Source: Eledone cirrhosa
Taxonomy: Eukaryota
DNA length: 64,000 nt
Direction of reading: 5' to 3'
Assembly: GCA_964016885.1 (NCBI GenBank)
Contig: OZ024746.1
Span: forward strand, 39,742,001 to 39,806,000
The notes under the pieces are model-generated. The model was not told the DNA's origin, searched no databases, and worked only from the letters and a program-made list of their open reading frames with translations. Made by a program: the position numbers and the translations under genes. Shown one piece after another: positions 11,740 through 63,367 of this stretch (its first letter is position 1; every line of letters begins with the position of its first letter).

Positions 11740-11860
11740 TTCTGAGTTCAAATCCCGCCGAGGTTGACTTTGCCTTTCATCCTTACGGGGTCGATAAAAT
11801 AAAGTACCAGTAATGCACTGGGTAATTGCTGGCCTTGAGCCTAAAGTAGAAACAATTATT
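11740..11860 (+). mobile_element. tRNA-derived SINE, family A (5'-truncated)
   Basis: B box GAGTTCAAATCCC, conserved body GCCTTTCATCCTTACGGGGTCGATAAAATAAAGTACCAG, 3' end GTAGAAACAATTATT. Confidence 0.85.
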
Positions 11861-11939
11861 TAGCTATACTAAAGAATATTATAAAGCTCTTTTTCGATAT
11901 TGAGTACTCATTATCGCGCCCGTCTATTACATATATCTA

Positions 11940-12848: not shown

Positions 12849-12899
<51 letters not shown>

Positions 12900-13134
12900 A
12901 TACTTGGGGAGAGTCATATTTGTGTAATATTGCCACAATTAATAACAGAACACACTCACTGTTTGGTTGGTTTTCGCTTTTCGCTTCTGTGTCTTTTATA
13001 TCGGTAATTTAATTTATTCGGTCCTCAATGTTGCCATTGACTGACCAACGGTCAAAAATAATACAGATACAATATAGACACAAATACAAATAGACAATAA
13101 CTATATATAGTTTATCAAAGTTCTTTCGTTGCAC

Positions 13135-13178
13135 CACTGACGATGTTGCAGATGTGCAACGAAAGAACTTTGATAAAC
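13135..13178 (+). ncRNA. Minimal hammerhead ribozyme core, helix I 5' strand truncated at the inversion junction
   Basis: CA-CTGACGA-T-GTTGCA-GATG-TGCAAC-GAAA-G-AA-CTT-TGATAAAC. Confidence 0.6.
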
Positions 13179-13242
13179 TATATATATGTGTTTGTGTCTA
13201 TATTGTATCTGTATTATTTTTTACCGTTGTATTATTTTTTAC

Positions 13243-13341
13243 CGCCGAGGTTGACTTTGCCTTTCATCCTTACGGGGTCGATAAAATAAAGTACCAGTAA
13301 TGCACTGAATAATTGCTGGCCTTGTGCCTAAAGTAGAAACA
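13243..13341 (+). mobile_element. SINE family A fragment nested in the right arm
   Basis: TSD ATTATTTTTTACCGTTG at 13213-13229 and 13342-13358, plus an extra partial TSD copy at 13230-13244. Confidence 0.85.
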
Positions 13342-13782
13342 ATTATTTTTTACCGTTGGTCAGTCAATGGCAACATTGAGGACCGAATAAATTAGATTAC
13401 CGATATAAAAGACACAGAAGCGAAAGGTGAAAACCAACCAAACAGTGAGTGTGTTCTGTTATTAATTCTGGCAATATTACACAAATATGACTCTCTCCAA
13501 GTATAACAATATTTGTTTCAACACACGATTTCATATCAAAAACCTCGCAAAACTATATATATATATATATATATGCCGGTTTCCTATTTAGTTTATATTG
13601 CCGATACGCATAACTGCACTTTTCTTTCAGATTTACTGCACATATAATTTTAATTGCAGTCAACAAAACAGAAGTCATTTCAGAAGGGCTGGCTACTTTT
13701 CCTCTTCTAATTAAAGGAAGCTTTCGATGAGGAATTTCCGGTATCATGCACTCGCGCGCACACATATATATACATATATATT

Positions 13783-16966: not shown

Positions 16967-17368
16967 ATATATATTCAGATATGTTAACTTTAGTTGGCAA
17001 TAGTTTTATTTTCAGTGACTGGGGAATTGCGCTGGTTAAACATTTAAACATGTTGCTACACACTCCGATATATGTAGAAGTTAATGGCTATTTATTTAAG
17101 TCATTATTTCCGTCCCTCTTTGCCGTCAAAACAGAGCCTCATTAATGTTTAGCAGTTTTACATCCAATCTTCCACATACACACTAGTTACGTATATTGAA
17201 GTGGTAAGTATAGGTGCTAGCCACTCAATACTACAAACATCATTCGCAATCCAGTATGAACTAGCAGCATGCACTATAATTTCGATAAGGGTTCTAGATG
17301 TCCATGCAGTTGCGAACAGATACATACACGTTCTCGACCTTCCTCCGTCAATTGGGCTACCACTCTCC

Positions 17369-17659
17369 AAGTACCGGTCGCTCTCAGTCAGGTTTGCGGT
17401 CGTACCCTTGGCAGTGGAGACTTCTGGTGGCCTTGGCCCTAGGGTTACCTCCTTACTCACCACCATAGGCGCTGAGCTGACCAGTCGCTGGTGTGAGCCT
17501 CGCGAGTTGGAATGGCTCTTCCAGCGCATCTCCCTTGCCATCCTCCGGGGAAACGCCTTCTCCATTCTGTCCGCCGGTGCTGTGGGGAGGCCAGCACGTG
17601 GGACCCCATTTGCTCACCATACGGAGAGATGGAGAGGGCCAGAGAGATGGAGGCGATGA
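17369..17659 (+). mobile_element. 3' fragment of a CRE-clade-like non-LTR retrotransposon (restriction-like endonuclease C-terminus)
   Basis: Translation KYRSLSVRFAVVPLAVETSGGLGP...IGAEL...LFQRISLAILRGNAFSIL fits the KY...P.AVET.G..G...QR.S.AI.RGNA pattern of CRE-type RLE domains. Confidence 0.75.
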
Positions 17660-19945: not shown

Positions 19946-20034
<89 letters not shown>

Positions 20035-20064
20035 AGATCAAAAGATGGTTAAAAGAGTTCCAAG

Positions 20065-20135
20065 TATTTTATTATGCGCATTTCAAAAACAAATATCATC
20101 ATGGGATGATATCTGCGTTCTCATCAGATAAAATA
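20065..20135 (-). ncRNA. Minimal type I hammerhead ribozyme (mirror copy)
   Basis: Reverse complement of 21486-21556 with an intact core. Confidence 0.85.
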
Positions 20136-21485
20136 GGGAGACATGATATGAAGCTTAAAAAACACTTGTGAGCAGTGAAGTTTTAAATCAACATATGAAA
20201 AATAAATTAACATGGATGTATGAGATTGGGAAAAGGAGTTGGAAAAGGTAAGGAAGAGGAAGAAATAAGAGTAAAGGATGGTGGGGGTGGAGTATAAGAA
20301 GGAAGGATGAGAGAGGAGGAGAAATTGGTGATAGAGAGAGAGAGATAACCTTTACAACTGAGAAAAATATTGTCTCACAGAGAGAAATTATAAAACCGTT
20401 GGAAGATAATAGATAATTTAAAAGATTTTGAAGTTAAAAGTTAATGAGGTTTATGCATGAAGAAAAAGGAATTAAGAATAGTATTAAATTAAGGTTTGTA
20501 TATTGAAGGGTTTAATAATATGTGCGAAGAAAAGAATTTATTAATATGTATTATTAAAATTATAATATTAATGATATTAAGGATATAATGTGAAAAGAAG
20601 GAGAAGAATAAATGAGTTATGAATTTAGAGGAATTAGTTAGGGTTTAAGTTTGTTTTTGTGTATTGTAATATGTGTACGTAAATAGTATGTTTAAATTTT
20701 TCTTCTCTCTTCTCTCCTTCCATGCTCGTTTTAAACCTACTACTTACTTTTACTTTTACATATTACAATACATAAAAACAAACTTAAACCCTAACTAATT
20801 TCTTTTTAATATATTATAATATTACCATTAGAAAATATTTCGTAAACATATATACTTTTTGACGTTAGATATTTTCTTCCTTAAACATTCTTTTTTCTTC
20901 TCTCCTTCCGTGCTCATTTTAAACAAACTAATTACGTATACATATTACAATGCATAAAAACAAACTTAAACCCTAACTAATTCCTCTAAATTCATAACTC
21001 ATTTATTCTTCTCCTTCTTTTCACATTATATCCTTAATATCATTAATATTTCTATTTTAATACTACATATTAATAAATTCTTTTCTTCGCACATATTATT
21101 AAACCCTTCAATATACAAACCTTAATTTAATACTATTCTTAATTCCTTTTTCTTCATGCATAAACCTCATTAACTTTTAACTTCAAAATCTTTTAAATTA
21201 TCTATTATCTTCCAACGGCCTTTTAATTTCTTTCTGTGAGGCAATATTTTTCTCAGTTGTAAAGGTTATCTCTCTCTATCACCCATTTCTCCTCCTCTCT
21301 CATCCTTCCTTCTTATACTCCTCCCCCACCATCCTTTACTCTTATTTCTTCCTCTTCCTTACCTTTTCCAACCCCTGCCCCTCACTTTTTCCCAATCTCA
21401 TACATCCATCTTAATTTATTTTTCATATGTTGATTTAAAACTTCACTGCTCACAAGTGTTTTTTAAGCTTCATATCATGTCTCCC

Positions 21486-21556
21486 TATTTTATCTGATGA
21501 GAACGCAGATATCATCCAATGATGATATTTGTTTTTGAAATGCGCATAATAAAATA
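21486..21556 (+). ncRNA. Minimal type I hammerhead ribozyme
   Basis: TATTTTAT-CTGATGA-GAACGCAGATATCATC..GATGATATTTGTTTTT-GAAA-T-GCGC-ATA-ATAAAATA. It has an 8-bp helix I, a long helix II and a palindromic helix III. Confidence 0.85.
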
Positions 21557-21700
21557 CATGGAACTCTTTTAACCATCTTTTGATCTTATATTATTTATAC
21601 TCCAGTCCTACAAACTGTAGAGTGCTACTTATCCGATATTTGCATTGCTTTATTGTGCTACAATAAAACTCACCTCCTACATATATATATATATATATAT

Positions 21701-22050
21701 CTTAAGGTTTGTTGGTTCATTCCGTATGGTCAATCCTGGTGTAATATTGTGAAGAGTACTCAACGCAGTGCAGTTCACCCATCTTCATTTGTGTAGTTGG
21801 TGGTGCGAATACGGAGTTAATTATAAATGAAATAACAGTAGGCTGGACTGGTGTAAATCCTTGAAAGGTTTATTATACTATGATCATTTCAATGACCGGG
21901 TTCCATATGTAATATTGTGAAGAGTACTCAACGCAATATTTGTGTAGTTGGTGGTGCGAATACGGAGTTAATATGGAACCCGGTCATTGAAATGATCATA
22001 GTATAATAAACCTTTCAAGGATTTACACCAGTCCAGCCTACTGTTATTTC

Positions 22051-22055
<5 letters not shown>
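21701..22055. mobile_element. Short PLE-derived hairpin insertion in (TA)n
   Basis: Inverted tail 21701-21821; arms ~21822-21908 and ~21972-22055 contain the HHR 3' half GAAA-TGATCA-TA. The spacer is a partial copy of the tail. Confidence 0.7.
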
Positions 22056-22104
<49 letters not shown>

Positions 22105-26818: not shown

Positions 26819-27009
26819 GACGGTGGATTAGCAGTTAGCAGTATCGGTAGAGGGTCGGACGCCATGCTTTCCAGCATAGTTACGTCCCTTTACGATCTGA
26901 GTTCAAATCCCGCCGAGGTTGACTTTGCCTTTCATCCTTACGGGGTCGATAAAATAAAGTACCAGTAATGCACTGGGTAATTGCTGGCCTTGTGCCTAAA
27001 GTAGAAACA
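26819..27009 (+). mobile_element. Full-length tRNA-derived SINE, family A
   Basis: A/B boxes and conserved body. TSD ATTATTGATAATATTG at 26803-26818 and 27010-27025. Confidence 0.9.
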
Positions 27010-27284
27010 ATTATTGATAATATTGAATCTAGTTAACTAATCTGGTATTTAACCTGAGATAGAATTAGAATTTCGGAAATAAATAGTTAAGAATACCTAT
27101 AATTTGGAATGAGACATATATGTAGCTTGTAAATAATACGTTTTATTTTATTTTATTTCAAACAAGACACAATATCTGTTAAATTTACTTTATATTTATC
27201 ATTTATTTCCTGTAGTCAAATTTTTTCGTCGTACTGTTTGAGACCTGGACACTAATACTATAACTCAATACGTCTATGTGTGTT

Positions 27285-28853: not shown

Positions 28854-28879
28854 ATACACACACACACACATATATATAT

Positions 28880-29067
28880 AATTGTTTCTACTTTTGGCAC
28901 AAGGCCAGCAATTACCCAGTGTATTACTGGTACTTTATTTTATCGACCCCTTCAGGATGAAAGGCAAAGTTAACCTTGGCGGGATTTGAACTCAGAATGG
29001 CAAGGGCCTTAACGCTATGCGTCAAAGCATGGCGTCCGACCCTCTATCGATACTGCCAATCCTCCGC
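28880..29067 (-). mobile_element. Full-length SINE, family A
   Basis: Reverse complement of the family consensus. Confidence 0.85.
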
Positions 29068-29170
29068 TATATATATATATAATGTGTGTGTGTGTGTGTG
29101 TATTATATATAGATGTGTGTATATATGTATGTGTGTGTGTGTGTGTGTATTATATATATATATATATATA

Positions 29171-29760
29171 TATATTAAAGTATTGATTAATACGTAAAAT
29201 AATTAATCATCTTGTCAGACGAAAGTATACGTTAACCAAAGTGCTAAAGATAGTCATTATTAGAACCTAAAGGGTGGTGAATTGGCAGTATCGGTAGAGA
29301 GACGGACGCCATGCTTTCCAACATAGTTACGTCCCTTTACGGTCTGACTTGAAATCCCGTCGAAGTTAACTTTGCCTTTCATCCTTACGGGGTCGATAAA
29401 ATAAAGTACCAGTAATGTACTGGTTAATTGCTGGCCTTGTGCCAAAAGTAGAAACAATAATTAGAACCTAAAGTCAGCTTAGGGGCTGTAACACATTGTC
29501 CTACAACTCCGAATGAAAATTCTTAAATTTTATATTAATAGAGCTGAATTTAGGTTCTAATAATTGTTTCTACTTTAGGCACAAGGCCAGCAATTACCCA
29601 GTGCATAATGCCTATTGTTAGCACTTTGGTTAACCTATACTTTTGTCAGACAATATGATTAATAACTTTATGTATTAATCAATATTTTAATATATGTACT
29701 TCTGCTCCTAACATTAAATTTTAGTAGAGCTGACTCATTTTAGACCAAACGCACTGCTAT
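29171..29760. mobile_element. Older PLE-like hairpin insertion (arms ~29171-29479 and ~29542-29694, plus tail) with a SINE in each arm
   Basis: Diverged inverted arms start at (TA)n. Tail hairpin GCTC-CTAA...TTAG-TA-GAGC at 29704-29730. The right boundary is approximate and no intact HHR was found. Confidence 0.6.
29273..29459 (+). mobile_element. Full-length SINE, family A
   Basis: TSD ATTAGAACCTAAAG at 29259-29272 and 29460-29473. Confidence 0.9.
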
Positions 29761-29911
29761 TTCTAGCATTCCCGTTGGCCTATCTGTATCTGAACATTCT
29801 TAGTACGCTCCTCACCATGTGCATTCAGATCCTCTTTTAAATATATATATATAAATATAAATTAATAAAGTAATGAATAAACAAAGAAACAGTTCCTTAT
29901 ATTAAAAAAAT

Positions 29912-30053
29912 TCATCATTTTACGATCGTTTCTAGGATATATATGTGTTAGTGTTGGTATGCATATTCTATAGATCTATGTAAAATATTTATACAAACTA
30001 TCAGAGGGAATATACATACCTACACATATATATGCTGTCTTCAGAAATAATGA
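29912..30053 (-). ncRNA. Type I hammerhead ribozyme with greatly extended helix II
   Basis: Minus strand TCATTATTT-CTGAAGA-(~100 nt stem-loop)-GAAA-C-GATC-GTA-AAATGATGA. Confidence 0.75.
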
Positions 30054-30968
30054 TATTTGTTTATTGAAAAAAACAAAGATTTAATACAATAGGTCTGTTT
30101 GGGAACAGGTTTTGAATTGACCAATAGAAAGATAGTGAAGGTCAAGATAGTAATATAGTAGTAAAATAACCTTAATTTATGGGTAGAGGAAGGTAGATTT
30201 CAGTTTTAGATGGAAAAGAATATTATGAATGAAAGATTATTTTAGGGATGAAAATAGGTCGTATGCTGACCTCAGAAATAATTATATTTGTTCATTGAAT
30301 AAAACCAACAAAGATTTGATATAGTCTGTCTGTTTGGTAACAGGTTTAGAATTAACCAATAGAAAGTTAATAATTGGCCAAATGGTAAAATAGTAGTAAT
30401 TGAAGTTAATTTTAGGGGTAGATGAAGGTAGATTTCAGTTTTGAATGGAGTGTGAAGAATGAGAAGGTTATTTTAGGGGTGAAAATAGGTCAGGTCAGTA
30501 AAAGGTATACGAACAGTTGCTGTTATAAAATAGTAATGCCAATGCAAATATCTAAGGAGACTAAAATTTTACGATAAGAGTGTTAGTGAAAAAAATACAT
30601 CCATGAAAAGAATATAAATTAATTTAATTGATGGGTATATTTATATTGATCAAATTATACTAATGCATATAGATATGATAAATAAGAGTTAGATGCAGTT
30701 GGTTTTATTCAATGAACAAATATAATTATTTCTGAGGTCAGCATACGACCTATTTTCATCCCTAAAATAATCTTTCATTCATAATATTCTTTTCCATCCA
30801 AAACTGAAATCTACCTTCCTCTACCCATAAATTAAGGTTATTTTACTACTAGATTACTATCTTGACCTTCACTATCTTTCTATTGGTCAATTCAAAACCT
30901 GTTCCCAAACAGACCTATTGTATTAAATCTTTGTTTTTTTCAATAAACAAATATCATTATTTCTGAAG

Positions 30969-31098
30969 TTACGGCCCTTGCCATTCTGAGTTCAAATCCC
31001 GCCGAGGTTAACTTTGCCTTTCATCCTTATGGGGTCGATAAAATAAAGTACCAGTAATACACTGGGCAATTGCTGGCCTTGTGCCAAAAATAGAAACA
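30969..31098 (+). mobile_element. SINE family A (5'-truncated) inserted into the HHR of the right arm
   Basis: TSD ATTATTTCTGAAG at 30956-30968 and 31099-31111; absent from the left arm. Confidence 0.9.
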
Positions 31099-31421
31099 AT
31101 TATTTCTGAAGACAGCATATATATGTGTAGGTATATATATTCCCTCTGATAGTTTGTATAAATATTTTACATAGATCTATAGAATATGCATACCAACACT
31201 AACACATATATATCCTAGAAACGATCGTAAAATGATGAATTTTTTTAATATAAGGAACTGTTTCTTTGTTTATTCATTACTTTATTAATTTATCTTGACT
31301 CTGTTTTCCGTTAATTTTCACCGAAAATAGTTTTTGAATGCATCTTCTCTTTTCATGATATCCGGATTACATTGAGTTCTTCATACGGATTGGACACTAC
31401 CGTAAATTTTTGGTAGATTTA

Positions 31422-31452
<31 letters not shown>

Positions 31453-31458
<6 letters not shown>

Positions 31459-31947
31459 AGAAGCAAAAAATTGCTTATTGTGATCCAGTTTTTGGTTAAG
31501 AAAGCCAGTTTCATGGATGGTTTCAGCGTACGGTTAGGGGTAACTCCACAAGTTTGTAAGAATTCCGTTCAATCTTGGAGTATAAAGTATAAAAGAGAAA
31601 ACACAGGTAAGCATTAAGAGAAGGATTTAATCCAGGTATTTACGACCGTTTCATTGGTAAGTGCAACCTTATATTGCTATACTGCAAATAGCAGCCACTC
31701 AATTATAATTGTTGTTCACAGTCCAAATTTTCAAAATAGTGAGTTACTCTTGAAATAATTCTCTATATATTAAGAATTATTTCAAGAGTAACTCACTATT
31801 TTGAAAATTTGGACTGTGAACAACAATTATAATTGAGTGGCTGCTATTTGCAGTATAGCAATATAAGGTTGCACTTACCAATGAAACGGTCGTAAATACC
31901 TGGATTAAATCCTTCTCTTAATGCTTACCTGTGTTTTCTCTTTTATA
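31453..31947. mobile_element. PLE-derived hairpin: inverted tail 31453-31587, arms 31588-31762 and 31773-31947, 10-nt loop
   Basis: The arms appear to be perfect reverse complements (175 bp). HHR 3' half GAAA-CGGTCG-TA at 31883-31894. (TA)n flanks. Confidence 0.8.
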
Positions 31948-31984
31948 TATATATATATATATCTATATATATATCTGTGTGTGT

Positions 31985-40412: not shown

Positions 40413-41385
40413 GTGTGCGTGTGTGTGTTTTGTTTAAGTTCCGTAACTTGCTGGTTCATACAGGAGAAATACTGTGTTCAATATGATCGACTAAAATCTC
40501 TTTAAAGCGATGCCCGAGCACGACCGCAGTCTAATGACTGAAACTTGTAAAATAATAAACTCCTTAGATTAAACAATTTAAAAGAAAAAAGAAAAAAAAA
40601 ATGAGTCAGTAGATAAACTGTCAGATCAGCAGCTGAAATCCGCCAAAGTTACCTCTTCGCACAAAACATTTCTACGTGACTCTAAACAGGTACACCTCAT
40701 TTACTTCATATCTTAACACAAGAGATAATTGCATGCATGGACCGTAACTCCCGAGACTGTCGTAGGAGTGCCGTATTGACATATGGAGTTTCTATGCCAT
40801 TTAAAAAAAAGCCTGGTCTGAATACAGCATATTGCCTCCAGGGGATAGATAGTGAGAAAGAGATATAGAGGAAGAATCGAGAAGAAAAGTACTTGACTGG
40901 TACTTTTTTATCGACTTCGAATGGATGAAAGGTAAAGTTGACCTCGGCAGGATTTGAACTCAGTGAGTAGAGAGTCGACACGAATACCGCAAAGCATTCT
41001 ATCCGACGTTCTAACGACTGCCAATTCGCTACCTTTGGGAGATAATTACCATTTGTTTTTATATAAAACAAGATGGTATCATTACTAAATAATATCAAAA
41101 GTACTATATATGCAATTGAAAGAGCATTAAATTCAAAGTTTATTCGTAACCTAGGAATTATTGTTGGACAGTCCCGATCAGCTATGCTTGAACAGATCTA
41201 CGGCATGGAGATAATCCTGTGAAAGATTTGAAATAACCAGTAGGCATTATTGCATTCGACAACATTCACTCTGGTCTATAGCTTATCGATTGCTTGCACA
41301 GTAATCAGGACATGCTTTCTTTACCCACAAATATCTTTTGATTCTTGGGTCGACGTGACAATCAGATGTTATTATACACCACTGG

Positions 41386-41570
41386 CGGTGGCTTGGCAGA
41401 ATCAGTAGAGCATCAGACACCATGCTTTGCAGCATAGAGTCATGGCCCTTTATGTTCTGAGTTCAAATCCTGCCAAGGTTAGCTTTGCCTTTCATCCTTA
41501 CGGGGTCGATAAAATAAAGTACCAGTAATGCACTGATATAATTGCTGGCCTTGTGCCAAAAGTAGAAACA
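41386..41570 (+). mobile_element. Full-length SINE, family A
   Basis: TSD GTTATTATACACCACTGG at 41368-41385 and 41571-41588. Other family copies lie at ~1131-1200, 4880-4978, 10430-10525, 36310-36445, 40890-41030, 42240-42430 and 45920-46030. Confidence 0.9.
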
Positions 41571-42495
41571 GTTATTATACACCACTGGTCACAATACGCT
41601 TCCATGCTTGCCTTTATTGTGATCCTCTCTTTCCTTTTGACCTGAATACTTGGTGGTTTAAGAGTACGTAAGATTTTAAGCACAAGATCAACACGTTTGA
41701 GAAATGAGAAAGTTGACTAAATTGACCGCAGTACTTGACAGGTATTTTACCACGTTGACCTTGAAGGGAGGAAAGGTAACGTTAAATTCAGTTGGATTTG
41801 AACTCGGAACGTAATGAGCCGGTGAAACAAATCAATTTGCCCGACGCTCCAGCGATTCCCCCCAATCTAAACCCTCAGGTCGTTTGAATTTCATTCTGCC
41901 ACCATAGGTTGGCCTGATTGACCCCACGCGGGGAACGACGCCACCCCACTGGCTGGGTGAGCAGGTCGTAGTTACCTCTCTCCAGTTTAGATAGCGTCCA
42001 GAGTCTAGCGAATTGGACTGTGTGCGCGCTTCTGTTCAGTAGTCTTTCTGTAGGGTCGGTAATCCAGTACCTTTGTAGCTTGGCTGGACTTGCTGGAATA
42101 TCCTTCCCGTTACCATAGCTACGGGATACCCATTGCTATTATTGTGTAACTTGCGAGCTCTAAAAATCAAATTTTGCAGCTGTTTATCAAATATGATCAC
42201 AACCATTTGAGAAGACTGGCTGTTATTTACGTCGGCTGACGGCGGTGGGTTGGCAGTATCGGTAGAGCGTTCCACTACATTTTGAGTTCAATTCCCACCG
42301 AGGTTAGCTTTGCCTTTCATCCTTCCAGGGTCTATAAAATAAAGTACCAGTAACGCACTGAGGTCGATACAATCGACTTTCACCTCTCTCCAAATTGTTG
42401 GTCGTGTGTCTAAATCAGAAACCCTTATTTAAGTTGGCTTGAATCAATAATCTTGTCATGTGAAAAAAGGAAATATTTAAGGTTTCGAGCAGAGA

Positions 42496-46616: not shown

Positions 46617-47466
<850 letters not shown>

Positions 47467-47511
47467 TAAACAAATAATGAACAAACAATTCCTTATATTA
47501 AACAAAAAAAG

Positions 47512-47666
47512 TTCACTATTTAACGATCGTTTCTAGGGTATATATGTGTTATAATTGGTATGCATATTTAACAGATCTATGTACAAAATTATACAAAATT
47601 ATACAAATTATCAAGATTAAATATACATACCTAACTCATATATACGCCGTCTTCAGAAATAATGAA
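47512..47666 (-). ncRNA. Hammerhead ribozyme with extended helix II (mirror copy)
   Basis: Reverse complement of 56781-56935. Confidence 0.75.
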
Positions 47667-48438
47667 GTATATTTATTGATAATAACAACAATTCAAAATA
47701 TCAGTTCAAAATTGACCAATGAAAACACAAAGGGTTAAAAGCAGTTTGGTGTGTGTATATACATGTAAAAACCTTACACATATTTTACAATAATGTGTGT
47801 ATAATTTGTATGTGCATATTAAAAAGATGGATGCAAACACAAAATTTCAAGGTTAATATCTCTGTAAGCTTAATGCGCTGATAAGATACGCAATGATACT
47901 TATGGAGTCAAGCATATAAATATATTTTTTTCATACTCACACATATCAGTATAATCACACATACATGTGCGTATATGCATAAATATACACATAACCACGA
48001 ACATACAAACACACACACTCCCCCACTCACATTTATATATGTGGATATAAAATCATAAGCAAATAGAAATTAAGTCACTCACATAAAAACACTGGTACAC
48101 ACATTTCAAGATCAAGATACAGAAATTAGGTGGGAGGGGGGGGGGGAGGGGTCAGTATTAGATTGTCAGACCAGACTGCCTAATATAAATGTATCTATAA
48201 ATTAAGAAAAATAAAAAAATAAAAACAATAAAATATAATAAATATAATATAATGTACATATACATATACAGATATACATACACATACATACATGTACGCG
48301 CACATAGAGATATCTACACATACATACATACACACATACCTATACAGACATACACACACATACATTTACACGAACATACACATACACATATAAAAAGATA
48401 TAAATACACACACACTCACGCGCAACACATACACACAT

Positions 48439-48489
<51 letters not shown>

Positions 48490-48496
48490 TAGACTC

Positions 48497-48528
<32 letters not shown>

Positions 48529-48821
48529 ATACAAACATATATATCCACACACTCATACCACCATAAATACACATACAAACACCCACATGTATATATATAT
48601 ATATATATATATATCCACATACACACACGTACACATATATATACACACACATATATACACATACATATATATATATATACACACATAAAAAACAGACATG
48701 CACATATATATATATATATATATATTTCATTACTCTTATATATACACATAGTATATATACATACACAACCTCACTTATAGACATATACACATAAGTTATA
48801 TTACAATAATAATAAAGAATA

Positions 48822-48856
<35 letters not shown>

Positions 48857-50809
48857 TATATACATATATACATATATATATATATACACATACATACATA
48901 CACACACATACATACACATAAATATATACATACATAAATACACACATACGAATAAAGACATATATTCACACATAGACACCTATATACACATATATATATA
49001 TATATATATATATCTATATATATATACATACATATATATATATATATACATATATATATACACATACACACACACACACACACACAGACACACATACATA
49101 CTCACATATATATATATATATATGTGTATGTAAGTGTGCGCAAATACACATATATATACACACACACATACAAACACATACAAACACATACATATGCATA
49201 CTTGCACACACACACACATATATCACATAGATACGAAGATAAACATATAAATAGAGAGACATACAAATATATACAGAACCCATATACACATACATACAAA
49301 CACGCATATACATATACATACATATATACACATATATATATTCCTATATACAAGCATACACATACATACACATATATACATATACATACACATATACATA
49401 CCACACATTCACATACACATACATATATAATACATATATATACATATATATACATACATATGTATGTACAATCATATATACACACTCAATCTTACATTCA
49501 TATTTACATGCTCATATATGTATTTTTATATTTAGAAATAAATACCAAAACCTATATAGACACCCACCTACACATATATTCATACATATACGCTTACAAA
49601 AACAGATGATAATAGTATGGGGGAAAGGGGGGGTTTGGAGAAGGGGATCAAAGTAAATATATGTTTCAAGAAACATATAATATTTTCCGTATCTTAATTC
49701 AATGTATGTTCTTACATATTTTCAGTGCTAGGAAATACGAAATCTATGCATCTCAAAACAAAAAAGTATACCATTAATCATATGTTAACTAAACCAAAGA
49801 TAGTCAACATATTGAGTTCCAAGGTGTAAATTAGTTAGGTTTATAATATTTGAAGCAGAATTATGAAGTCAAACAGTAGTAGATTATTAATTACATTATA
49901 ACTAAATTAAAGTTAATAACGTTATGGTATCAATATTAGGAGATGAATTTAGTAATAGGGAAAAGAAACCCAAATAAAAATAAAATAAAGTATTACATCG
50001 GTAGTAGCATATAAATTATATGTTAACTAAATTAAAAATTATATATTTATTTCAATAGTATACGTTAATTAGTATATGTTAATTAGGTATACAATACATA
50101 AAGCAGATATTGTATTTCATCAATAGCATAATATAATTATATGCAAATAAAAATTAAAATTAATACGCATACATATACATATACATACACATACACATAC
50201 ATATACATATACACACATATATATATATATATACATATATATACACACATATATACATATATAGTCACATAAATATACATACAGATACACATACAACACA
50301 CACATATACATATACATATAGATATACATATCTTTTTCAAAAAATTGCACAGAATATATTAACTAGGTATATATCCAAAACACATCCCATTCTATGATTA
50401 CATGACATTCTGCAATTCGTCTGTACAAGGATACTAATTTTAAGCAAATTAAAATTAAAGTTTTAGGTTGATTAAAACTAAAACCAAATAATAAATATAT
50501 TTCCAAAATGTATATTAATTAGGTCTATAATACTAAAAATTCTTTCTCCGTCATAGGATACATGATATTATTTTGTTATATTTTATCTGTAAAAGAATTA
50601 TAATAAAAAAAAAAAAAAATTATAATAAAAGGTTAAAATAAATTAAAATTAATCTATAAATTAAATTACTGAGTATATATTAGTAATATTTAAAGGTTTT
50701 TCAAAATTTATGATTACATAATATTTTCTCATCTGTAATAAAATATTAATTAAATTAAATTTATAGGTTAACTAACATTTAAATTAAATTAAATTCTAGA
50801 ATAATGTTA

Positions 50810-52480
50810 TTAATTAGGTTTATAATATTTAAATGTTTTTTTTAGTTTATGATTACACGATATAATTAATTCCTGTCTTTTATTTAATAAGATATCCCTA
50901 GACTTCATTATTTCAAATAGTTCTTGGGAACATAATCTACATTCCTTTCTATTATTTTGATAAGGGGTGGCTCTTTTGAGCACACTCCAGGTCAAATCAT
51001 ATTTTATATTTTTATTTTTATAACTATTGATTTTTTCTGCTAGAGATGTTGTATTAGCCAGTGCGGCATTTTTAAAGCTATGTTTGTGGGTATTATACCT
51101 TGTCTTAAAATTGTTAGAGGTAGCTCCTATATATGAGCAAATAGAATCTTTAGTTTTAACATTACATTTATAGACTATGTTGTTAACCAGACAATTCCCT
51201 TTTAATGGGCAGTTTGTTTTGTTTCTACAGTTACATCCTTTCGTTAATTCTGTATTTGAGGAGATATTATTGTTAATTTGATGTACTGGTGGTATACTTA
51301 TGGTTTTCTTACATTTATATGCATTATATGCACTTATATTTTGTTTTATGTTATTTGTTGTAGAGTATGAGAATTTAACTGTAGACCTATTTAAGATTTG
51401 ATGGTATTTGTGGTTTGGCGGGAAGTTTTTCTCAAGGATATAAAAAAATTTTTTAGCAATATTATCCTTAACTTGTAAATTAAAAGGAGCATTATACCAA
51501 GTAACTCGTCTATTACGGTTTCTATGTTGTTTATTATTTTTATTATTTTTATATGTTGTATCATGATTTTTACTAGGAGGATTAATGTTAATGATCTCAC
51601 CACAACTATTTTTAGTTATATTTGTAGATTTAGGTGTTTTATCTATTTTATTAGGAGTTTTATTATTAATATTTATTATAGTTGTATGATGAGTAGTTTT
51701 TTGAGGGTTACTATACTTTATATTAGAAGATTTAGTATTTTGGGGTATACTGTGGGTGGCATTTAGGTGTGTACTTTTCATTTGGTGTTTGTTGGTAATA
51801 TTATGCTGTATGCTTTCAGTATTTTTAGTAGAAGGTATATACTCTAATCTATTTTTGTGGCCACTTCTATCTAGAGCTTCATTATAAAAGGTCGCATTTT
51901 TATCAAATACATCTTGGTTAGAAGAAAGGTTAGAAATTCTAAGTGATATATTATATGCAAGGTTTTTAAGGATAGATTTAGGGTGATTAGATTGTGAGTG
52001 TATGTAATGTAAGTTTTGGTTAGGTTTATGGTAAGGTTGGTATATACCCGTAGCTAAATCTAAAGTTATATCTAGGAAATTTACTACTTTACTTGTTTTT
52101 TCAAAAGTAATATTAAGATTATAATAGTCTTTAAGGAAAGTTCTAATATGCTTTTTGTTTTTTTCGATTTCTGAAAGGCTAAGGTTGTTAGAAAGAAGAA
52201 GACAGTCATCACGATATAAACCACCTTTGAGGTGGGGAAAAGAGGCATTTATGTTGAAAAGGAGAAAGAGGCCCACAAGATCAGTAATTTGGGCGGAATC
52301 GCTTGAACCCATAGTAATATCAAAAAGATTACTGTATGTGTTTCTGGTCCAGTATTCATTCTGAAATTCAATAAGTGTTTGTCTAGCATGTGTAATAATG
52401 TTAATGTCATCCGAAGTTAAATTAGATCTATTTTTAGCAAATATTAATGCTTTGTTCAGAAGTATGGGTGATATAGAAGA
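50810..52480 (-). CDS. PLE reverse transcriptase + GIY-YIG endonuclease, 5'-truncated within the RT
   Basis: The frame is open upstream of the tracked Met: SSISPILLNKALIFAK...LFDITMGSSDSAQITDLVGLFLL. Further motifs: GLYRDDCL, VNFLDITLDL, YHKPN..HPKSI, VTWYNAPFN, CNCR..CPLKGNCL, IVYK..YIGAT..FKTRYNTHKHSF, CRLC..E, LLNKRQE..C.H. These are typical of Naiad-type PLEs. Confidence 0.93.
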   Translation of the reverse strand, partial: SSISPILLNKALIFAKNRSNLTSDDINIITHARQTLIEFQNEYWTRNTYSNLFDITMGSSDSAQITDLVGLFLLFNINASFPHLKGGLYRDDCLLLSNNLSLSEIEKNKKHIRTFLKDYYNLNITFEKTSKVVNFLDITLDLATGIYQPYHKPNQNLHYIHSQSNHPKSILKNLAYNISLRISNLSSNQDVFDKNATFYNEALDRSGHKNRLEYIPSTKNTESIQHNITNKHQMKSTHLNATHSIPQNTKSSNIKYSNPQKTTHHTTIININNKTPNKIDKTPKSTNITKNSCGEIININPPSKNHDTTYKNNKNNKQHRNRNRRVTWYNAPFNLQVKDNIAKKFFYILEKNFPPNHKYHQILNRSTVKFSYSTTNNIKQNISAYNAYKCKKTISIPPVHQINNNISSNTELTKGCNCRNKTNCPLKGNCLVNNIVYKCNVKTKDSICSYIGATSNNFKTRYNTHKHSFKNAALANTTSLAEKINSYKNKNIKYDLTWSVLKRATPYQNNRKECRLCSQELFEIMKSRDILLNKRQELIISCNHKLKKTFKYYKPN

Positions 52481-52486
52481 ATTATA

Positions 52487-53644
52487 AAAAACCTTGCATA
52501 TAATATATCACTTAGAATTTCTAACCTTTCTTCTAACCAAGATGTATTTGATAAAAATGCGACCTTTTATAATGAAGCTCTAGATAGAAGTGGCCACAAA
52601 AATAGATTAGAGTATATACCTTCTACTAAAAATACTGAAAGCATACAGCATAATATTACCAACAAACACCAAATGAAAAGTACACACCTAAATGCCACCC
52701 ACAGTATACCCCAAAATACTAAATCTTCTAATATAAAGTATAGTAACCCTCAAAAAACTACTCATCATACAACTATAATAAATATTAATAATAAAACTCC
52801 TAATAAAATAGATAAAACACCTAAATCTACAAATATAACTAAAAATAGTTGTGGTGAGATCATTAACATTAATCCTCCTAGTAAAAATCATGATACAACA
52901 TATAAAAATAATAAAAATAATAAACAACATAGAAACCGTAATAGACGAGTTACTTGGTATAATGCTCCTTTTAATTTACAAGTTAAGGATAATATTGCTA
53001 AAAAATTTTTTTATATCCTTGAGAAAAACTTCCCGCCAAACCACAAATACCATCAAATCTTAAATAGGTCTACAGTTAAATTCTCATACTCTACAACAAA
53101 TAACATAAAACAAAATATAAGTGCATATAATGCATATAAATGTAAGAAAACCATAAGTATACCACCAGTACATCAAATTAACAATAATATCTCCTCAAAT
53201 ACAGAATTAACGAAAGGATGTAACTGTAGAAACAAAACAAACTGCCCATTAAAAGGGAATTGTCTGGTTAACAACATAGTCTATAAATGTAATGTTAAAA
53301 CTAAAGATTCTATTTGCTCATATATAGGAGCTACCTCTAACAATTTTAAGACAAGGTATAATACCCACAAACATAGCTTTAAAAATGCCGCACTGGCTAA
53401 TACAACATCTCTAGCAGAAAAAATCAATAGTTATAAAAATAAAAATATAAAATATGATTTGACCTGGAGTGTGCTCAAAAGAGCCACCCCTTATGAAAAT
53501 AATAGAAAGGAATGTAGATTATGTTCCCAAGAACTATTTGAAATAATGAAGTCTAGGGATATCTTATTAAATAAAAGACAGGAATTAATTATATCGTGTA
53601 ATCATAAACTAAAAAAAACATTTAAATATTATAAACCTAATTAA
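52487..53644 (+). CDS. More truncated inverted copy of the same ORF (RT thumb, linker and GIY-YIG)
   Basis: Same translation as the minus-strand copy except PYEN versus PYQN. Confidence 0.9.
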   Translation, partial: KNLAYNISLRISNLSSNQDVFDKNATFYNEALDRSGHKNRLEYIPSTKNTESIQHNITNKHQMKSTHLNATHSIPQNTKSSNIKYSNPQKTTHHTTIININNKTPNKIDKTPKSTNITKNSCGEIININPPSKNHDTTYKNNKNNKQHRNRNRRVTWYNAPFNLQVKDNIAKKFFYILEKNFPPNHKYHQILNRSTVKFSYSTTNNIKQNISAYNAYKCKKTISIPPVHQINNNISSNTELTKGCNCRNKTNCPLKGNCLVNNIVYKCNVKTKDSICSYIGATSNNFKTRYNTHKHSFKNAALANTTSLAEKINSYKNKNIKYDLTWSVLKRATPYENNRKECRLCSQELFEIMKSRDILLNKRQELIISCNHKLKKTFKYYKPN

Positions 53645-54200
53645 TAACATTATTCTAGAATTTAATTTAATTTAAATGTTAGTTAACCTATAAATTTAAT
53701 TTAATTAATATTTTATTACAGATGAGAAAATATTATGTAATCATAAATTTTGAAAAACCTTTAAATATTACTAATATATACTCAGTAATTTAATTTATAG
53801 ATTAATTTTAATTTATTTTAACCTTTTATTATAATTTTTTTTTTTTTTTATTATAATTCTTTTACAGATAAAATATAACAAAATAATATCATGTATCCTA
53901 TGACGGAGAAAGAATTTTTAGTATTATAGACCTAATTAATATACATTTTGGAAATATATTTATTATTTGGTTTTAGTTTTAATCAACCTAAAACTTTAAT
54001 TTTAATTTGCTTAAAATTAGTATCCTTGTACAGACGAATTGCAGAATGTCATGTAATCATAGAATGGGATGTGTTTTGGATATATACCTAGTTAATATAT
54101 TCTGTGCAATTTTTTGAAAAAGATATGTATATCTATATGTATATGTATATGTGTGTGTTGTATGTGTATCTGTATGTATATTTATGTGACTATATATGTA

Positions 54201-54243
<43 letters not shown>

Positions 54244-55589
54244 ATATGTATATGTATGTGTATGTGTATGTATATGTATATGTATGCGTATTAATTTTAA
54301 TTTTTATTTGCATATAATTATATTATGCTATTGATGAAATACAATATCTGCTTTATGTATTGTATACCTAATTAACATATACTAATTAACGTATACTATT
54401 GAAATAAATATATAATTTTTAATTTAGTTAACATATAATTTATATGCTACTACCGATGTAATACTTTATTTTATTTTTATTTGGGTTTCTTTTCCCTATT
54501 ACTAAATTCATCTCCTAATATTGATACCATAACGTTATTAACTTTAATTTAGTTATAATGTAATTAATAATCTACTACTGTTTGACTTCATAATTCTGCT
54601 TCAAATATTATAAACCTAACTAATTTACACCTTGGAACTCAATATGTTGACTATCTTTGGTTTAGTTAACATATGATTAATGGTATACTTTTTTGTTTTG
54701 AGATGCATAGATTTCGTATTTCCTAGCACTGAAAATATGTAAGAACATACATTGAATTAAGATACGGAAAATATTATATGTTTCTTGAAACATATATTTA
54801 CTTTGATCCCCTTCTCCAAACCCCCCCTTTCCCCCATACTATTATCATCTGTTTTTGTAAGCGTATATGTATGAATATATGTGTAGGTGGGTGTCTATAT
54901 AGGTTTTGGTATTTATTTCTAAATATAAAAATACATATATGAGCATGTAAATATGAATGTAAGATTGAGTGTGTATATATGATTGTACATACATATGTAT
55001 GTATATATATGTATATATATGTATTATATATGTATGTGTATGTGAATGTGTGGTATGTATATGTGTATGTATATGTATATATGTGTATGTATGTGTATGC
55101 TTGTATATAGGAATATATATATGTGTATATATGTATGTATATGTATATGCGTGTTTGTATGTATGTGTATATGGGTTCTGTATATATTTGTATGTCTCTC
55201 TATTTATATGTTTATCTTCGTATCTATGTGATATATGTGTGTGTGTGTGCAAGTATGCATATGTATGTGTTTGTATGTGTTTGTATGTGTGTGTGTATAT
55301 ATATGTGTATTTGCGCACACTTACATACACATATATATATATATATATGTGAGTATGTATGTGTGTCTGTGTGTGTGTGTGTGTGTGTATGTGTATATAT
55401 ATATGTATATATATATATATATGTATGTATATATATATAGATATATATATATATATATATATATGTGTATATAGGTGTCTATGTGTGAATATATGTCTTT
55501 ATTCGTATGTGTGTATTTATGTATGTATATATTTATGTGTATGTATGTGTGTGTATGTATGTATGTGTATATATATATATATGTATATA

Positions 55590-55624
<35 letters not shown>

Positions 55625-55917
55625 TATTCTTTATTATTATTGTAATATAACTTATGTGTATATGTCTATAAGTGAGGTTGTGTATGTATATATACTATGT
55701 GTATATATAAGAGTAATGAAATATATATATATATATATATATGTGCATGTCTGTTTTTTATGTGTGTATATATATATATATGTATGTGTATATATGTGTG
55801 TGTATATATATGTGTACGTGTGTGTATGTGGATATATATATATATATATATATATACATGTGGGTGTTTGTATGTGTATTTATGGTGGTATGAGTGTGTG
55901 GATATATATGTTTGTAT

Positions 55918-55949
<32 letters not shown>

Positions 55950-55956
55950 GAGTCTA

Positions 55957-56007
<51 letters not shown>

Positions 56008-56780
56008 ATGTGTGTATGTGTTGCGCGTGAGTGTGTGTGTATTTATATCTTTTTATATGTGTATGTGTATGTTCGTGTAAATGTATGTGTGTGTATGACT
56101 GTATAGGTATGTGTGTATGTATGTATGTGTAGATATCTCTATGTGCGCGTACATGTATGTATGTGTATGTATATCTGTATATGTATATGTACATTATATT
56201 ATATTTATTATATTTTATTGTTTTTATTTTTTTATTTTTCTTAATTTATAGATACATTTATATTAGGCAGTCTGGTCTGACAATCTAATACTGACCCCTC
56301 CCCCCCCCCCCTCCCACCTAATTTCTGTATCTTGATCTTGAAATGTGTGTACCAGTGTTTTTATGTGAGTGACTTAATTTCTATTTGCTTATGATTTTAT
56401 ATCCACATATATAAATGTGAGTGGGGGAGTGTGTGTGTTTGTATGTTCGTGGTTATGTGTATATTTATGCATATACGCACATGTATGTGTGATTATACTG
56501 ATATGTGTGAGTATGAAAAAAATATATTTATATGCTTGACTCCATAAGTATCATTGCGTATCTTATCAGCGCATTAAGCTTACAGAGATATTAACCTTGA
56601 AATTTTGTGTTTGCATCCATCTTTTTAATATGCACATACAAATTATACACACATTATTGTAAAATATGTGTAAGGTTTTTACATGTATATACACACACCA
56701 AACTGCTTTTAACCCTTTGTGTTTTCATTGGTCAATTTTGAACTGATATTTTGAATTGTTGTTATTATCAATAAATATAC

Positions 56781-56935
56781 TTCATTATTTCTGAAGACGG
56801 CGTATATATGAGTTAGGTATGTATATTTAATCTTGATAATTTGTATAATTTTGTATAATTTTGTACATAGATCTGTTAAATATGCATACCAATTATAACA
56901 CATATATACCCTAGAAACGATCGTTAAATAGTGAA
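56781..56935 (+). ncRNA. Type I hammerhead ribozyme with a 116-nt helix II domain
   Basis: TTCATTATTT-CTGAAGA-...-GAAA-C-GATC-GTT-AAATAGTGAA. It has a 10-bp helix I and a palindromic helix III CGATCG. Confidence 0.75.
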
Positions 56936-57120
56936 CTTTTTTTGTTTAATATAAGGAATTGTTTGTTCATTATTTGTTTAATATTTTATCTTGACTCTGT
57001 ATACCGTTTATTTTTCACCGAAAGTGGATTTTCATTACATCTCTTCTTTCCATGATATCCGGAATACATTGAGTTCTTCATACGGATTGGACACTACCGT
57101 AAACTCTTGGTAGATTTATC

Positions 57121-57776
<656 letters not shown>

Positions 57777-58299: not shown

Positions 58300-58639
58300 G
58301 TATTTGTGAGTGTGTGTGATTGTGTATGTGTATATATATATATATATATATACATACATTTAAAGACCCTCATCGGTTATGTCATGATTGACCATGGGAT
58401 TTGATTTGCATCTAGAAAGTTCTCCTCCGAGACACAATTCTGGGCAAGGTTTTTTGTGGAAGACCAGTAGTCACCCATACATATCAGTCTCCCTTCTCCA
58501 CACCAGCGATGTTGTCCAAGAGAGAGGCTAAGGCCCATACAGTTTGGCACCAGTGACGTCGCAACTCATTTCTACAATTAAGTGAACTCGAACAACGTGA
58601 AATAAAGTGTTTTGTTCAATAACTATACATATATTATAT

Positions 58640-58826
58640 ATAATTGTTTCTACTTTTGGCACATGGCCAGCAAATATCCAGTTCATTACTGGTACTTTAT
58701 TTTATCGACCCCGTAAGGATGAAAAGCAAAGTTAACCTCGGCTGGATTTGAACTCAGAATGGCAAGGGCCGTAACTCTTTGCGTCAAAGCATGGCGTCCG
58801 ACCCTCTACCGATACTACCAATCCAC
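58640..58826 (-). mobile_element. Full-length SINE, family A
   Basis: Reverse complement of the family consensus; close to 28880-29067. Confidence 0.85.
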
Positions 58827-59266
58827 ATAATATATATACATATAATGTATCTTTTCTCTTCCTTTCTCTAAGTCAGTCTTCCCCATTTGTAACCATCTAT
58901 CGCCCTCCTACGATCTGTTTATCAGTGCCTTTCTCTTTTTTATAATCGCCTTCTTTGAAGCATTTCATTCTATGTGTCACATCTCGCACACACGTTTGCT
59001 CTCTCTCACTCTCTCACTCACTCTCTCTCACTCTTTCTCTCTCTCTCTTTCACACACTCTCTCTTTTTTCTCTCTCTCTCTCTCTTTCTCTCTCAATCTT
59101 CCTCGTGCTCTTTCTCTTTCTAATTTTCTCTCGCAATTTGTCTTTAAATTCTAGTTCCTCTCTCATTCCTTTCATCTATATCTTTCACTCTCACACATCA
59201 TTTCTCACTCTCAACCTCGCTCTGTCTCTCTCCGCTCTCTCTCATCTCCCTCACTCGCTCCCTCGT

Positions 59267-60855: not shown

Positions 60856-61901
60856 CTTGTAGCATCTATATTATTATATTATACTCCTACTTGTAGCATC
60901 TATATTATTATATTATACTTCTACTTGTAACATCTATATTATTATATTATACTTCTACTTGTAACTTCTATATTATTATATTATACTTCTACTTGTAACA
61001 TCTATATTATTATATTATACTTCTACTTGTAACTTCTATATTATTATATTATACTTCTACTTGTAACATCAATATTATTATATTATACTTCTACTTGTAA
61101 CATCTATATTATTATATTATACTTCTACTTGTAGCATCTATATTATTATATTATACTTCTACTTGTAACATCTATATTATTATATTATACTTCTACTTGT
61201 AACTTCTATATTATTATATTATACTTCTACTTGTAACATCAATATTATTATATTATACTTCTACTTGTAACATCTATATTATTATATTATACTTCTACTT
61301 GTAGCATCTATATTATTATATTATACTTCTACTTGTAACTTCTATATTATTATATTATACTTCTACTTGTAACATCTATATTATTATATTATACTTCTAC
61401 TTGTAGCATCTATATTATTATATTATACTTCTACTTGTAACATCTATATTATTATATTATACTTCTACTTGTAACATCTATATTATTATATTATACTTCT
61501 ACTTGTAACTTCTATATTATTATATTATACTTCTACTTGTAACTTCTATATTATTATATTATACTTCTACTTGTAACATCTATATTATTATATTATACTT
61601 CTACTTGTAACTTCTATATTATTATATTATACTTCTACTTGTAGCATCTATATTATTATATTATACTTCTACTTGTAACATCTATATTATTATATTATAC
61701 TTCTACTTGTAACATCTATATTATTATATTATACTTCTACTTGTAGCATCTATATTATTATATTATACTTCTACTTGTAGCATCTATATTATTATATTAT
61801 ACTTCTACTTGTAGCATCTATATTATTATATTATACTTCTACTTGTAGCATCAATATTATTATATTATACTTCTACTTGTAGCATCAATATTATTATATT
61901 A
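60856..61901. repeat. 34-bp minisatellite, about 31 copies (ACTTCTACTTGTARCWTCTATATTATTATATTAT)
   Basis: Head-to-tail units with no spacers. Confidence 0.97.
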
Positions 61902-62957
61902 AGTAGCTTCAACATTTGCCTTAGGGCTGGGGTGGGAGTGGAGGTAGAGGCGGACCGGAGTGAGGTGGAGATTTATCAGCAGCAGCCTATATTCAGATTC
62001 ACAGTTTACAGTAGATGTGTGGGATTTTAACACAGAATGTAATAGGCTGTAACTCTATGCTATAAAGCATGTTGTCCGATGCACTACCGATACTGCCAAT
62101 CCACTGCTCAAGACAATGAATATTAATAATATTTTTTTGAAATCGAATGTATGTAGTAAATGTTCATTAAAGAGAGAATCAGCTAACTCAGTATATCAAC
62201 ATTTCAAAAATCAGAATTTTGTAGGAGATATGAACGATGGAATGGCCTCCGACACATAACGGAACATAGTTTGTAATGACATCGACCTCGACAAGAAACG
62301 AAAGGTCATGAATGAGGTGTAGAACAGTCGCAGTTCAGTTATGATACCCATACTATGTTTAACACGCATACGTACACACAGAGATGCATATAGATATTTA
62401 AATATACACATGTATATATACAAATATATACACATACATATATGTATATATATATATATATTAGAAAGTGAGGTTTTTTTTACAAAATGAAAAATAACCG
62501 AGGTGTCCAACACGAGTGAAAGTATAAAGAAAAAGAGATGAAATAGAAAATGCAACTGGAGTCTTATTTTTTTTTTAAATATATATATTTATTTGGTTCC
62601 TTTACCGGTTTCGCAGTTCTTCTGCTTTTCAAAAGGTGAGTTGAGATGGAGGGTCTGTGGTTTTTCTCACATATATATAAATTACAGAATAATCAAAACT
62701 ATGTTCAAAGCATTTTATTGCTGACAATCGCTTCTTCCAAACATTCGTTTGGAATCATCGGAGCATTGGCAAAGTTTAAACATATAATTAACCTCCTATT
62801 CCACAGAACAATCGTAAAGATATGTAGATATGTAGTGTATTACATTGAGCTATTTTTCATACTGGTATTAAGGTGGTAAAAAATAAAAAAAATACTGACC
62901 TCTCTTGTTTATAATTATATATACTATATATATAAGTATAAATAATATTATTATTAT

Positions 62958-63249
62958 ACGGCCCTTTAGGGTCTGAGTTCAAATCCCGCCGAGGTTAACT
63001 TTGCTTTTCATCCTTATGGGTCGATAAAATAAAGTACCAGTAATACACTGGGATAATTGCTGGCCTTGTGCCGCCGTGGATTGGCAGTATCGGTAGAGGG
63101 TCGGACGCCATGCTTTCCAGCATAGTTACGTCCCTTTACGATCTGAGTTCAAATCCCGCCGAGGTTGACTTTGCCTTTCATGATTACGGGGTCGATAAAA
63201 TAAAGTACCAGTAATGCACTGGCCTTGTGCCTAAAGTAGAAACAATTAT
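62958..63249 (+). mobile_element. Two tandem SINE family A copies (truncated ~62958-63072, full ~63073-63249)
   Basis: Two B boxes and two bodies in direct tandem. Confidence 0.85.
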
Positions 63250-63259
63250 ATAAATACTA

Positions 63260-63367
<108 letters not shown>

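Follow-up and report, generated by a model that had tools for sequence, protein, structure and literature searches.

Inverted insertions of a Penelope-like element in Eledone cirrhosa and the pairing of their two fixed ends

Penelope-like elements (PLEs) that carry an endonuclease (EN+ PLEs) are described with head-to-head inverted 5′-truncated copies, partial tandems and a tail at one end only (PMC3846280; PMC8557442), and the formation of PLE tandem and inverted insertions has been named an open question (PMC8557442). A stretch of 64,000 nucleotides from Eledone cirrhosa (assembly GCA_964016885.1, contig OZ024746.1, positions 39,742,001–39,806,000 of the forward strand), referred to as the window and numbered from its first letter, was analysed for one such structure: the region 47458–57126 is one young insertion of a PLE into a split (TA)n array. 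Partial tandems forming pseudo-long terminal repeats (pLTRs), an inverted 5′ copy and a tail were all present for this element, as in EN+ PLEs. In the cited papers the tail is optional or ‘often’ one-sided, whereas here counts show it to be one-sided with almost no exception, and non-nested arms are frequent. Clade, inverted layout and one-sided tail are already published; new here is the counted coupling of two fixed ends, termed A and B. No paper applying twin priming to PLEs or counting A+B pairing was found in the literature, as judged on titles and the start of abstracts, in a search of mainly open-access papers that did not reach the older Penelope papers.

The published description of the Hydra clade of PLEs comprises a C-terminal endonuclease with CxxC and CxH next to the catalytic E and N, the motifs RWK and DKT, a CxCx5C linker, insertion into (TA)n and hammerheads (PMC8557442). 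The element studied here is alike in its single open reading frame (ORF), in which reverse transcriptase (RT) is followed by a C-terminal endonuclease, in RWR (versus their RWK), DKT, CxCx5C, CxxC/CxH and the (TA)n target, and in a hammerhead-like motif close to its 3′ end, where the foot of stem II holds unpaired bases, a trait of several motifs in File S2 too; one Repbase member is also listed with an inverted 5′-truncated copy (PMC8557442). It differs in length (6.06 kb versus 1.1–3.0 kb for the families listed in PMC8557442), in a 3.1-kb microsatellite-rich 3′ untranslated region (UTR), in an insert of ~100 amino acids (aa) behind the thumb and in a 116-nt helix II region. Its tail measures 137 nt, versus 30–40 nt as published for PLEs (PMC8557442).

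Two further systems bear on how such insertions arise. The protein of the Poseidon element PAc from the green anole cleaved and extended both strands in vitro, with initiation at two internal RNA sites that bound the tail, on an AT-rich target and as a predicted dimer (PMC11167929). The present element would share these features, but PAc belongs to another clade, has its start sites early in the ORF and carries a tail of 30–40 bp (PMC11167929), while the sites described here are found upstream of the ATG, at 289 and 152 nt. For L1 5′ inversions, an origin by twin priming has been proposed: both target strands prime and two opposite complementary DNAs (cDNAs) are end-joined (PMC12016303), and an inverted duplication of host flank occurs occasionally (bioRxiv 10.1101/2024.12.14.628481). 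In L1, however, the second start varies in position, the two cDNAs overlap little (median 12 bp) and ~20% of insertions are affected (PMC12016303), whereas here both starts are fixed, the overlap reaches kilobases and 28 of 40 insertions ascertained by their ORF are inverted.

Layout of the insertion and pairing of its ends

Element positions are given as u, counted in a natural 6,060-nt unit with the ATG at 1. The left arm (A arm; 47458–52482, minus strand) is a 5′-truncated copy spanning u770–u5771, which ends at site A into (TA)n; the right arm (B arm; 52487–57126, plus strand) is a 5′-truncated copy spanning u1285–u5908, which ends at site B. Self-alignment of the window gave a single long inverted repeat, 47458–51967 versus 52487–56989, with 99.73% identity over 4,511 columns. 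The near-identity of ~4.5-kb arms with few substitutions and microsatellite-length differences, as reported in a preliminary description of this DNA, was thereby borne out: the arms differ by three substitutions, among them the Gln/Glu codon at 50959 (left) and 53495 (right), one 8-nt microsatellite indel and one 1-nt homopolymer indel. The 519-nt spacer, which had been explained as extra RT sequence of the less truncated copy, is such sequence of the left copy except for 4 nt, TATA at 52483–52486, which form the inversion junction and belong to neither copy here. The ORF remnants, described as free of stops and frameshifts, are open in both copies, and the left, minus-strand frame runs through the spacer. 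Two other points had to be changed. The right arm exceeds the end of the left arm by 137 nt of element sequence (the tail, 56990–57126, on the right arm only; tandem copies continue there into the next unit) and reaches 57123–57126 instead of ending at 57121, its final 3 nt coinciding with the TA array. Because the A arm holds u770–1284 and the B arm holds the tail, the pair is asymmetric and non-nested, not the simple palindrome it had been taken for.

The target array, with CAG and GG interruptions, extends over 46618–47457 on the left and 57127–57773 on the right. Counted as ACAGT versus ACTGT and AGG versus CCT, the interruptions gave 14/2 and 9/0 in the left flank and 8/0 and 2/0 in the right flank. 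Both flanks hence point the same way, as had been noted before, which identifies them as parts of one split (TA)n array and not as mirror images; any target-site duplication is hidden by the (TA)n target. Among 56 head-to-head cases examined in the same manner, 13 had co-oriented flanks, 2 opposite and 1 mixed, and 40 were without usable interruptions.

The genome searched was one 3.0-Gb assembly, from which every count was taken. Copies of the family end at u5771 (A) or u5908 (B), 137 nt apart, each with an AT overlap of 2–3 nt with the target. Exact patterns of these ends running into TA were found 2,033 times for A and 4,178 times for B genome-wide, and reversed-pattern controls gave 0. Pairing was counted on C1 from 0 to 99.73 Mb, where 46 A and 100 B ends were among the matches listed, with head-to-head neighbours accepted within 20 kb: 35 of 36 neighbours were A+B and one was B+B (P = 3.5e-12 under random pairing), with ~4 chance neighbours of any kind expected. 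On inspection, the lone B+B case proved to be two separate insertions, each consisting of B and a variant A, and one locus counted as A+B (L149) is really A-A-B. The 40 ORF-ascertained insertions comprised 28 inverted and 12 one-armed ones (6 ending at A, 6 at B); of the inverted ones, the 26 whose ends could both be resolved were without exception A+B, the other two being unresolved, and 2 of these 26 are shared with the C1 set. From 63 unpaired B ends, the first 20 were inspected: 11 had a variant-A partner, 7 were one-armed, 1 was odd (its partner ends near u5735), 1 was unresolved and none was B+B.

An older sister family is represented in the window at 29838–31453 with the same layout, A+B ends and ~80% pLTR identity; older insertions of the same architecture had been claimed for the window, and this one holds. 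Its hammerhead-like motif is the same (GUA triplet), and it includes several short pLTR-like units in tandem. Where the pLTR of its right arm begins, there is a repeat resembling a short interspersed nuclear element (SINE), with what looks like a 13-bp target duplication. The family was searched on C1–C12 with its own patterns (58 A′ and 100 B′ ends among the matches listed; the B′ pattern without TA requirement), and its 23 head-to-head loci were 22 A′+B′ and one A′-A′-B′, with no B′+B′.

Formation of the inverted insertions

We consider it probable that these insertions arise by twin target-primed reverse transcription, in which both ends of a single break start copies of RNA from one source and end-joining follows. 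As read from the sequences, the element endonuclease would cut both strands of the strand-symmetric (TA)n target, and, using the AT overlap of 2–3 nt, the two 3′ ends would each prime cDNA in the pLTR, one at site A, one at site B. Both cDNAs would be copied from one-source RNA: in the simplest form from one RNA molecule, with the B-primed enzyme displacing the A cDNA, or alternatively from two sibling molecules. The 3′ ends of both cDNAs would then be end-joined, bluntly, through microhomology or with a short insert, leaving a palindrome with the tail on one side only. A stronger version, in which double priming is obligately asymmetric and one enzyme complex on one RNA delivers A to one broken end and B to the other, so that the same RNA is copied twice, is put forward tentatively and is somewhat harder to credit than to doubt.

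The sources of the two arms were compared by sequence. The window arms show 1 difference in 2,989 unique bases, while the nearest other fetched copy is 0.27–0.30% away and the median distance is 0.59%; four variants are common to both arms and absent from all other fetched copies, and only the right arm has the Glu allele (1/83). Over 34 loci with at least 500 shared bases, the arms resembled each other more than any other fetched copy in 30, equally in 3 and less in 1 (L139), with medians, from rounded values, of 0.04% from arm to arm and 0.30% to another fetched copy. No two of the 27 mapped inversion junctions are alike (5 blunt, 9 with 1–13 nt of microhomology, 13 with inserts of 1–97 nt), so the junctions were made anew at each insertion. 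Among 33 loci ascertained by their ends, 10 were non-nested, 5 nested, 9 of equal start (~u5566), 3 with a tandem A arm and 6 complex or unresolved; at L111–L114 and L127 the B arm stops inside the tail or at its edge, leaving no duplication, like an L1 5′ inversion.

These relations bear on two other ways of obtaining fixed ends and inverted arms. After a single priming event, the cDNA or an antisense template could fold back or prime itself, so that the second arm would copy the first; for Penelope elements, self-priming that uses an antisense template has been published as an interpretation (PMC3846280). Such events do occur in the family. At L149 and L175 an inverted self-copy comes after the A arm, runs through end A into the host flank and is closed by a short B arm (C1 30.69–30.71 Mb, L149/L150 and L178; C3 327.136–327.143 Mb, L175 and L179), the inverted host-flank copies measuring 2,661 bp at 99.9% and about 720 bp at 97–98%; at one junction both arms start at u928 with a duplicated 7-nt spacer, and the nested (5/33) and equal-start (9/33) loci would fit as well. 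The clear fold-backs, however, do not stop at A, and a separate B-primed piece still closes the event, so that fold-back exists here as an extra repair path and the A…A cases fit an A cDNA on one flank and a B cDNA on the other. In the window and at the 10 non-nested loci, moreover, each arm holds sequence absent from the other, and several pairs have no overlap at all; for the window insertion fold-back is contradicted by the non-nested arms unless a later deletion removed u770–1284 from the B arm. It is judged unlikely as the origin of the second arm. Unlikely, too, is that the endonuclease cuts back a longer, symmetric cDNA or hairpin DNA intermediate, to A at one side and to B at the other, the ends then being cut sites. 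Trimming would likewise yield fixed ends, and resolution of an intermediate by the endonuclease is a published alternative (PMC8557442), but the tail ends of the Poseidon element were mapped in vitro to RT initiation sites (PMC11167929), and non-overlapping arms and a variable, end-joined centre are poorly explained by it.

That the window palindrome is a long-read fold-back or assembly artefact is very improbable. Public short-read contigs (runs X1, X2, X3, X4 and X6) cover both sides of the junction, and none among the matches listed bridges 52478–52486; contigs of this kind drop rare paths, and a gap in them speaks neither for nor against the junction. The lack of a bridge in X1, X2, X4 and X6 and the near-identity of the arms would also fit an artefact. 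An artefact is made unlikely by the flanks, which are co-oriented and not mirrored, by the non-nested arms with two different fixed ends, and by the recurrence of the A+B rule at dozens of loci and in the older, diverged family. Two independent, opposite insertions into the same (TA)n array, to which we give hardly any weight, would suit an abundant family that targets (TA)n, the TATA remnant at the junction and the divergent arms of L139. Against them stand the four variants that the window arms share exclusively and the B+B pairs, which independent events would produce in number and of which none was seen.

Several observations weigh against twin priming on RNA of one source, or against its stronger version. 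Among the ORF-ascertained insertions 12 of 40 are one-armed, as are 7 of the 20 B ends sampled; L128 and L129 carry an extra A end, and the partner arm of L157 ends at neither A nor B. The A+B arms of L139/L140 (C1 70.165–70.177 Mb) are 0.9% apart and each is nearer to another locus, so two templates do occur, and this case is probably a two-template event. The nearest copies were sought among 169 fetched segments of a family with more than 1,000 candidates, so closer sources may exist, and arm-to-arm gene conversion or assembly polishing could equally make arms alike. One RNA copied twice is indistinguishable from two RNAs of the same source locus. In the Poseidon experiments as described, both strands used the two start sites alike, and the results drawn on here include no forced A+B coupling (PMC11167929).

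Clade, terminal motifs and activity of the family

A full-length copy with the N-terminal RT motifs was supplied by a natural tandem with the 6,060-nt unit (range 6,054–6,060 nt) and an ORF of 813 aa, which opens with these motifs. The domain order is RT, thumb, an N/K/T-rich insert of low confidence (~100 aa), a Cys linker and, at the C terminus, a GIY-YIG-like endonuclease at about aa 676–813, the latter assigned by motif (VY-x-YIG, R, H, E, N). In the window, the left remnant (50810–52482, minus strand) comprises the RT after motif 3, with YRDD at 52205–52216 (minus strand), the thumb, the insert, the linker and the endonuclease; the right remnant (52487–53644, plus strand) runs from the end of the thumb to the endonuclease, with the CxCx5C linker from 53219. 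Searches of Pfam and the PDB with the element protein sequence gave nothing significant. An AlphaFold model of the protein (predicted local distance difference test score, pLDDT, 81.3) was compared with Foldseek, and the top five matches were telomerase RTs (E 4e-8 to 2e-7, template modelling (TM) score about 0.3), as expected for PLEs.

The element shows RWR, SDKT, the linker CNCRNKTNC (CxCx5C) and CRLC..E..N..CNH. Most of 19 aligned homologues, out of 313 found, show RWK or RWR and DKT, and most other motifs recur too. By these motifs the element matches the published description of the Hydra clade as an unusually long member, since less than 3 kb is general for that clade, a described tendency and not a strict criterion; the assignment rests on published motif descriptions, and the 120 homologues listed of the 313 carry no informative names. 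The preliminary description had called the insertion Naiad-like. Naiads share a PLE-type RT, a (TA)n target and inverted insertions (PMC8557442), but are defined by an N-terminal GIY-YIG endonuclease, a CxC motif (with a KR block) between endonuclease and RT, and DKA, and lack a canonical hammerhead (PMC8557442). This placement was given up: the endonuclease is C-terminal, no CxC precedes the RT (the first 197 aa of the ORF hold no Cys), the motif is DKT and not DKA, and a hammerhead-like motif is present. Neptune and Nematis were ruled out by the CxCx5C linker and DKT (versus CX2-5CxxC, DKG and CCHH). For the Hydra clade an endonuclease lacking the CCHH motif is expected; in the element protein two Cys stand between VY and YIG, and they are not conserved in the 19 homologues; CCHH-bearing references were outside this alignment.

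The ORF is followed by the 3′ UTR of ~3.1 kb (53645–56783, plus strand; mirror copy 47664–50809), which is rich in TA, CA and TACA microsatellites, AATAAA at 56770–56775 (plus strand) and the pLTR from u5566 (56784–57126, plus strand). A type-I hammerhead-like motif was found at 56781–56935 (plus strand; mirror copy 47512–47666, minus strand), with a 10-bp helix I, a CTGAAGA core, the 116-nt helix II region and GAAAC-GATC-GTT with a palindromic loop; self-cleavage is predicted at u5707 (after 56925). A strict hammerhead descriptor, which demands pairing at the foot of helix II, missed the motif, which was found in the fold and counted with a looser pattern; it is kept across subfamilies and in the older sister family. 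A palindromic helix III and an unpaired base at the helix II foot are described for PLE hammerheads (PMC4209133; PMC8557442 File S2). The Rfam search returned no hammerhead, just microsatellite-driven microRNA matches under the gathering score. Some 15 unrelated hammerhead-like motifs with helix II regions of 60–150 nt, counted without a chance control, were seen in the flanks of loci L031–L170, often with palindromic loops (CAATTG, CGTACG, CATATG), a hint that numerous further PLE families carry hammerheads with a long helix II, which may escape Rfam.

Short insertions locate a further point in the pLTR. In 17 of them, 23 of 34 arms begin at u5563–5568, the start of the pLTR, which is likely an RNA 5′ end; u5566 may be a transcription start, to which putative initiator (Inr)-like and downstream promoter element (DPE)-like words in the pLTR would point, or may be a processing cut, as AATAAA ends 9 nt upstream; it differs from the predicted hammerhead cut at u5707. 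One gapped pattern, built on a single guessed junction, was searched for genomic copies lacking a supposed spliced 5′-UTR intron and gave 0 matches. Palindromes of 520–620 bp that consist of two pLTRs only, both starting at u5566, are abundant (L118–L126, L158, L164, L167, L168). The 520–570-bp palindromes were also considered as clones of one element resembling a miniature inverted-repeat transposable element (MITE), and this was ruled out, as central junctions and variants vary by locus.

Genome searches returned 1,640 candidates for the RT region and 1,190 for the endonuclease region. The best 40 of the 1,640 were ~100% identical, and 16 of 20 ORF starts in fetched DNA stay stop-free for 807–813 aa, from which recent activity of the family, as the preliminary description had proposed, follows. 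About half of the sampled words were present in two other organisms (runs X3 and X5), and X3 contigs were ~98% identical over RT and thumb; the family is accordingly common to close relatives or was transferred.

Other features of the window and biological meaning

The window holds further short inverted repeats and near-perfect palindromes (arms to ~680 bp, 95%) at 12892–13512, 13049–13244, 20022–21599, 21822–22057, 29415–29606 and 31581–31953, which are probably stubs of other PLE families. More than 12 copies of a SINE-like repeat of ~180 bp were noted, including those at 11739–11861, 26835–27015, 28866–29085, 41385–41579, 58627–58848 and 62957–63260. An open stretch of 168 aa at 17153–17659 (plus strand) resembles what we take to be the C-terminal restriction-like endonuclease region of a retrotransposon without long terminal repeats (non-LTR), and a young tandem array lies at 60856–61901 (34-bp period, ~97% identity between shifted copies).

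Nothing seen points to a function of the insertion for the host, and the locus is ordinary, one of many in the genome. As its sequence suggests, a transcript crossing the insertion would be able to form a duplex of 4.5 kb; cruciforms, or long double-stranded RNA as a substrate for ADAR or RNA interference, had been put forward as possible consequences in the preliminary description. Each long copy holds ~3 kb of TA, CA and TACA simple repeats in its 3′ UTR, so that the family itself spreads microsatellites, and it also targets (TA)n. The family is young and abundant, with many intact ORFs, and its two defined start sites allow it to be predicted sharply that each insertion has one A end and one B end. 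If the coupling is indeed obligate, multi-kilobase palindromes would be the normal product of such an element, and ‘inverted pLTR’ and ‘one-sided tail’ would be one phenomenon; thousands of insertions would then seed palindromes, microsatellites and occasional host inverted duplications across the 3-Gb genome.

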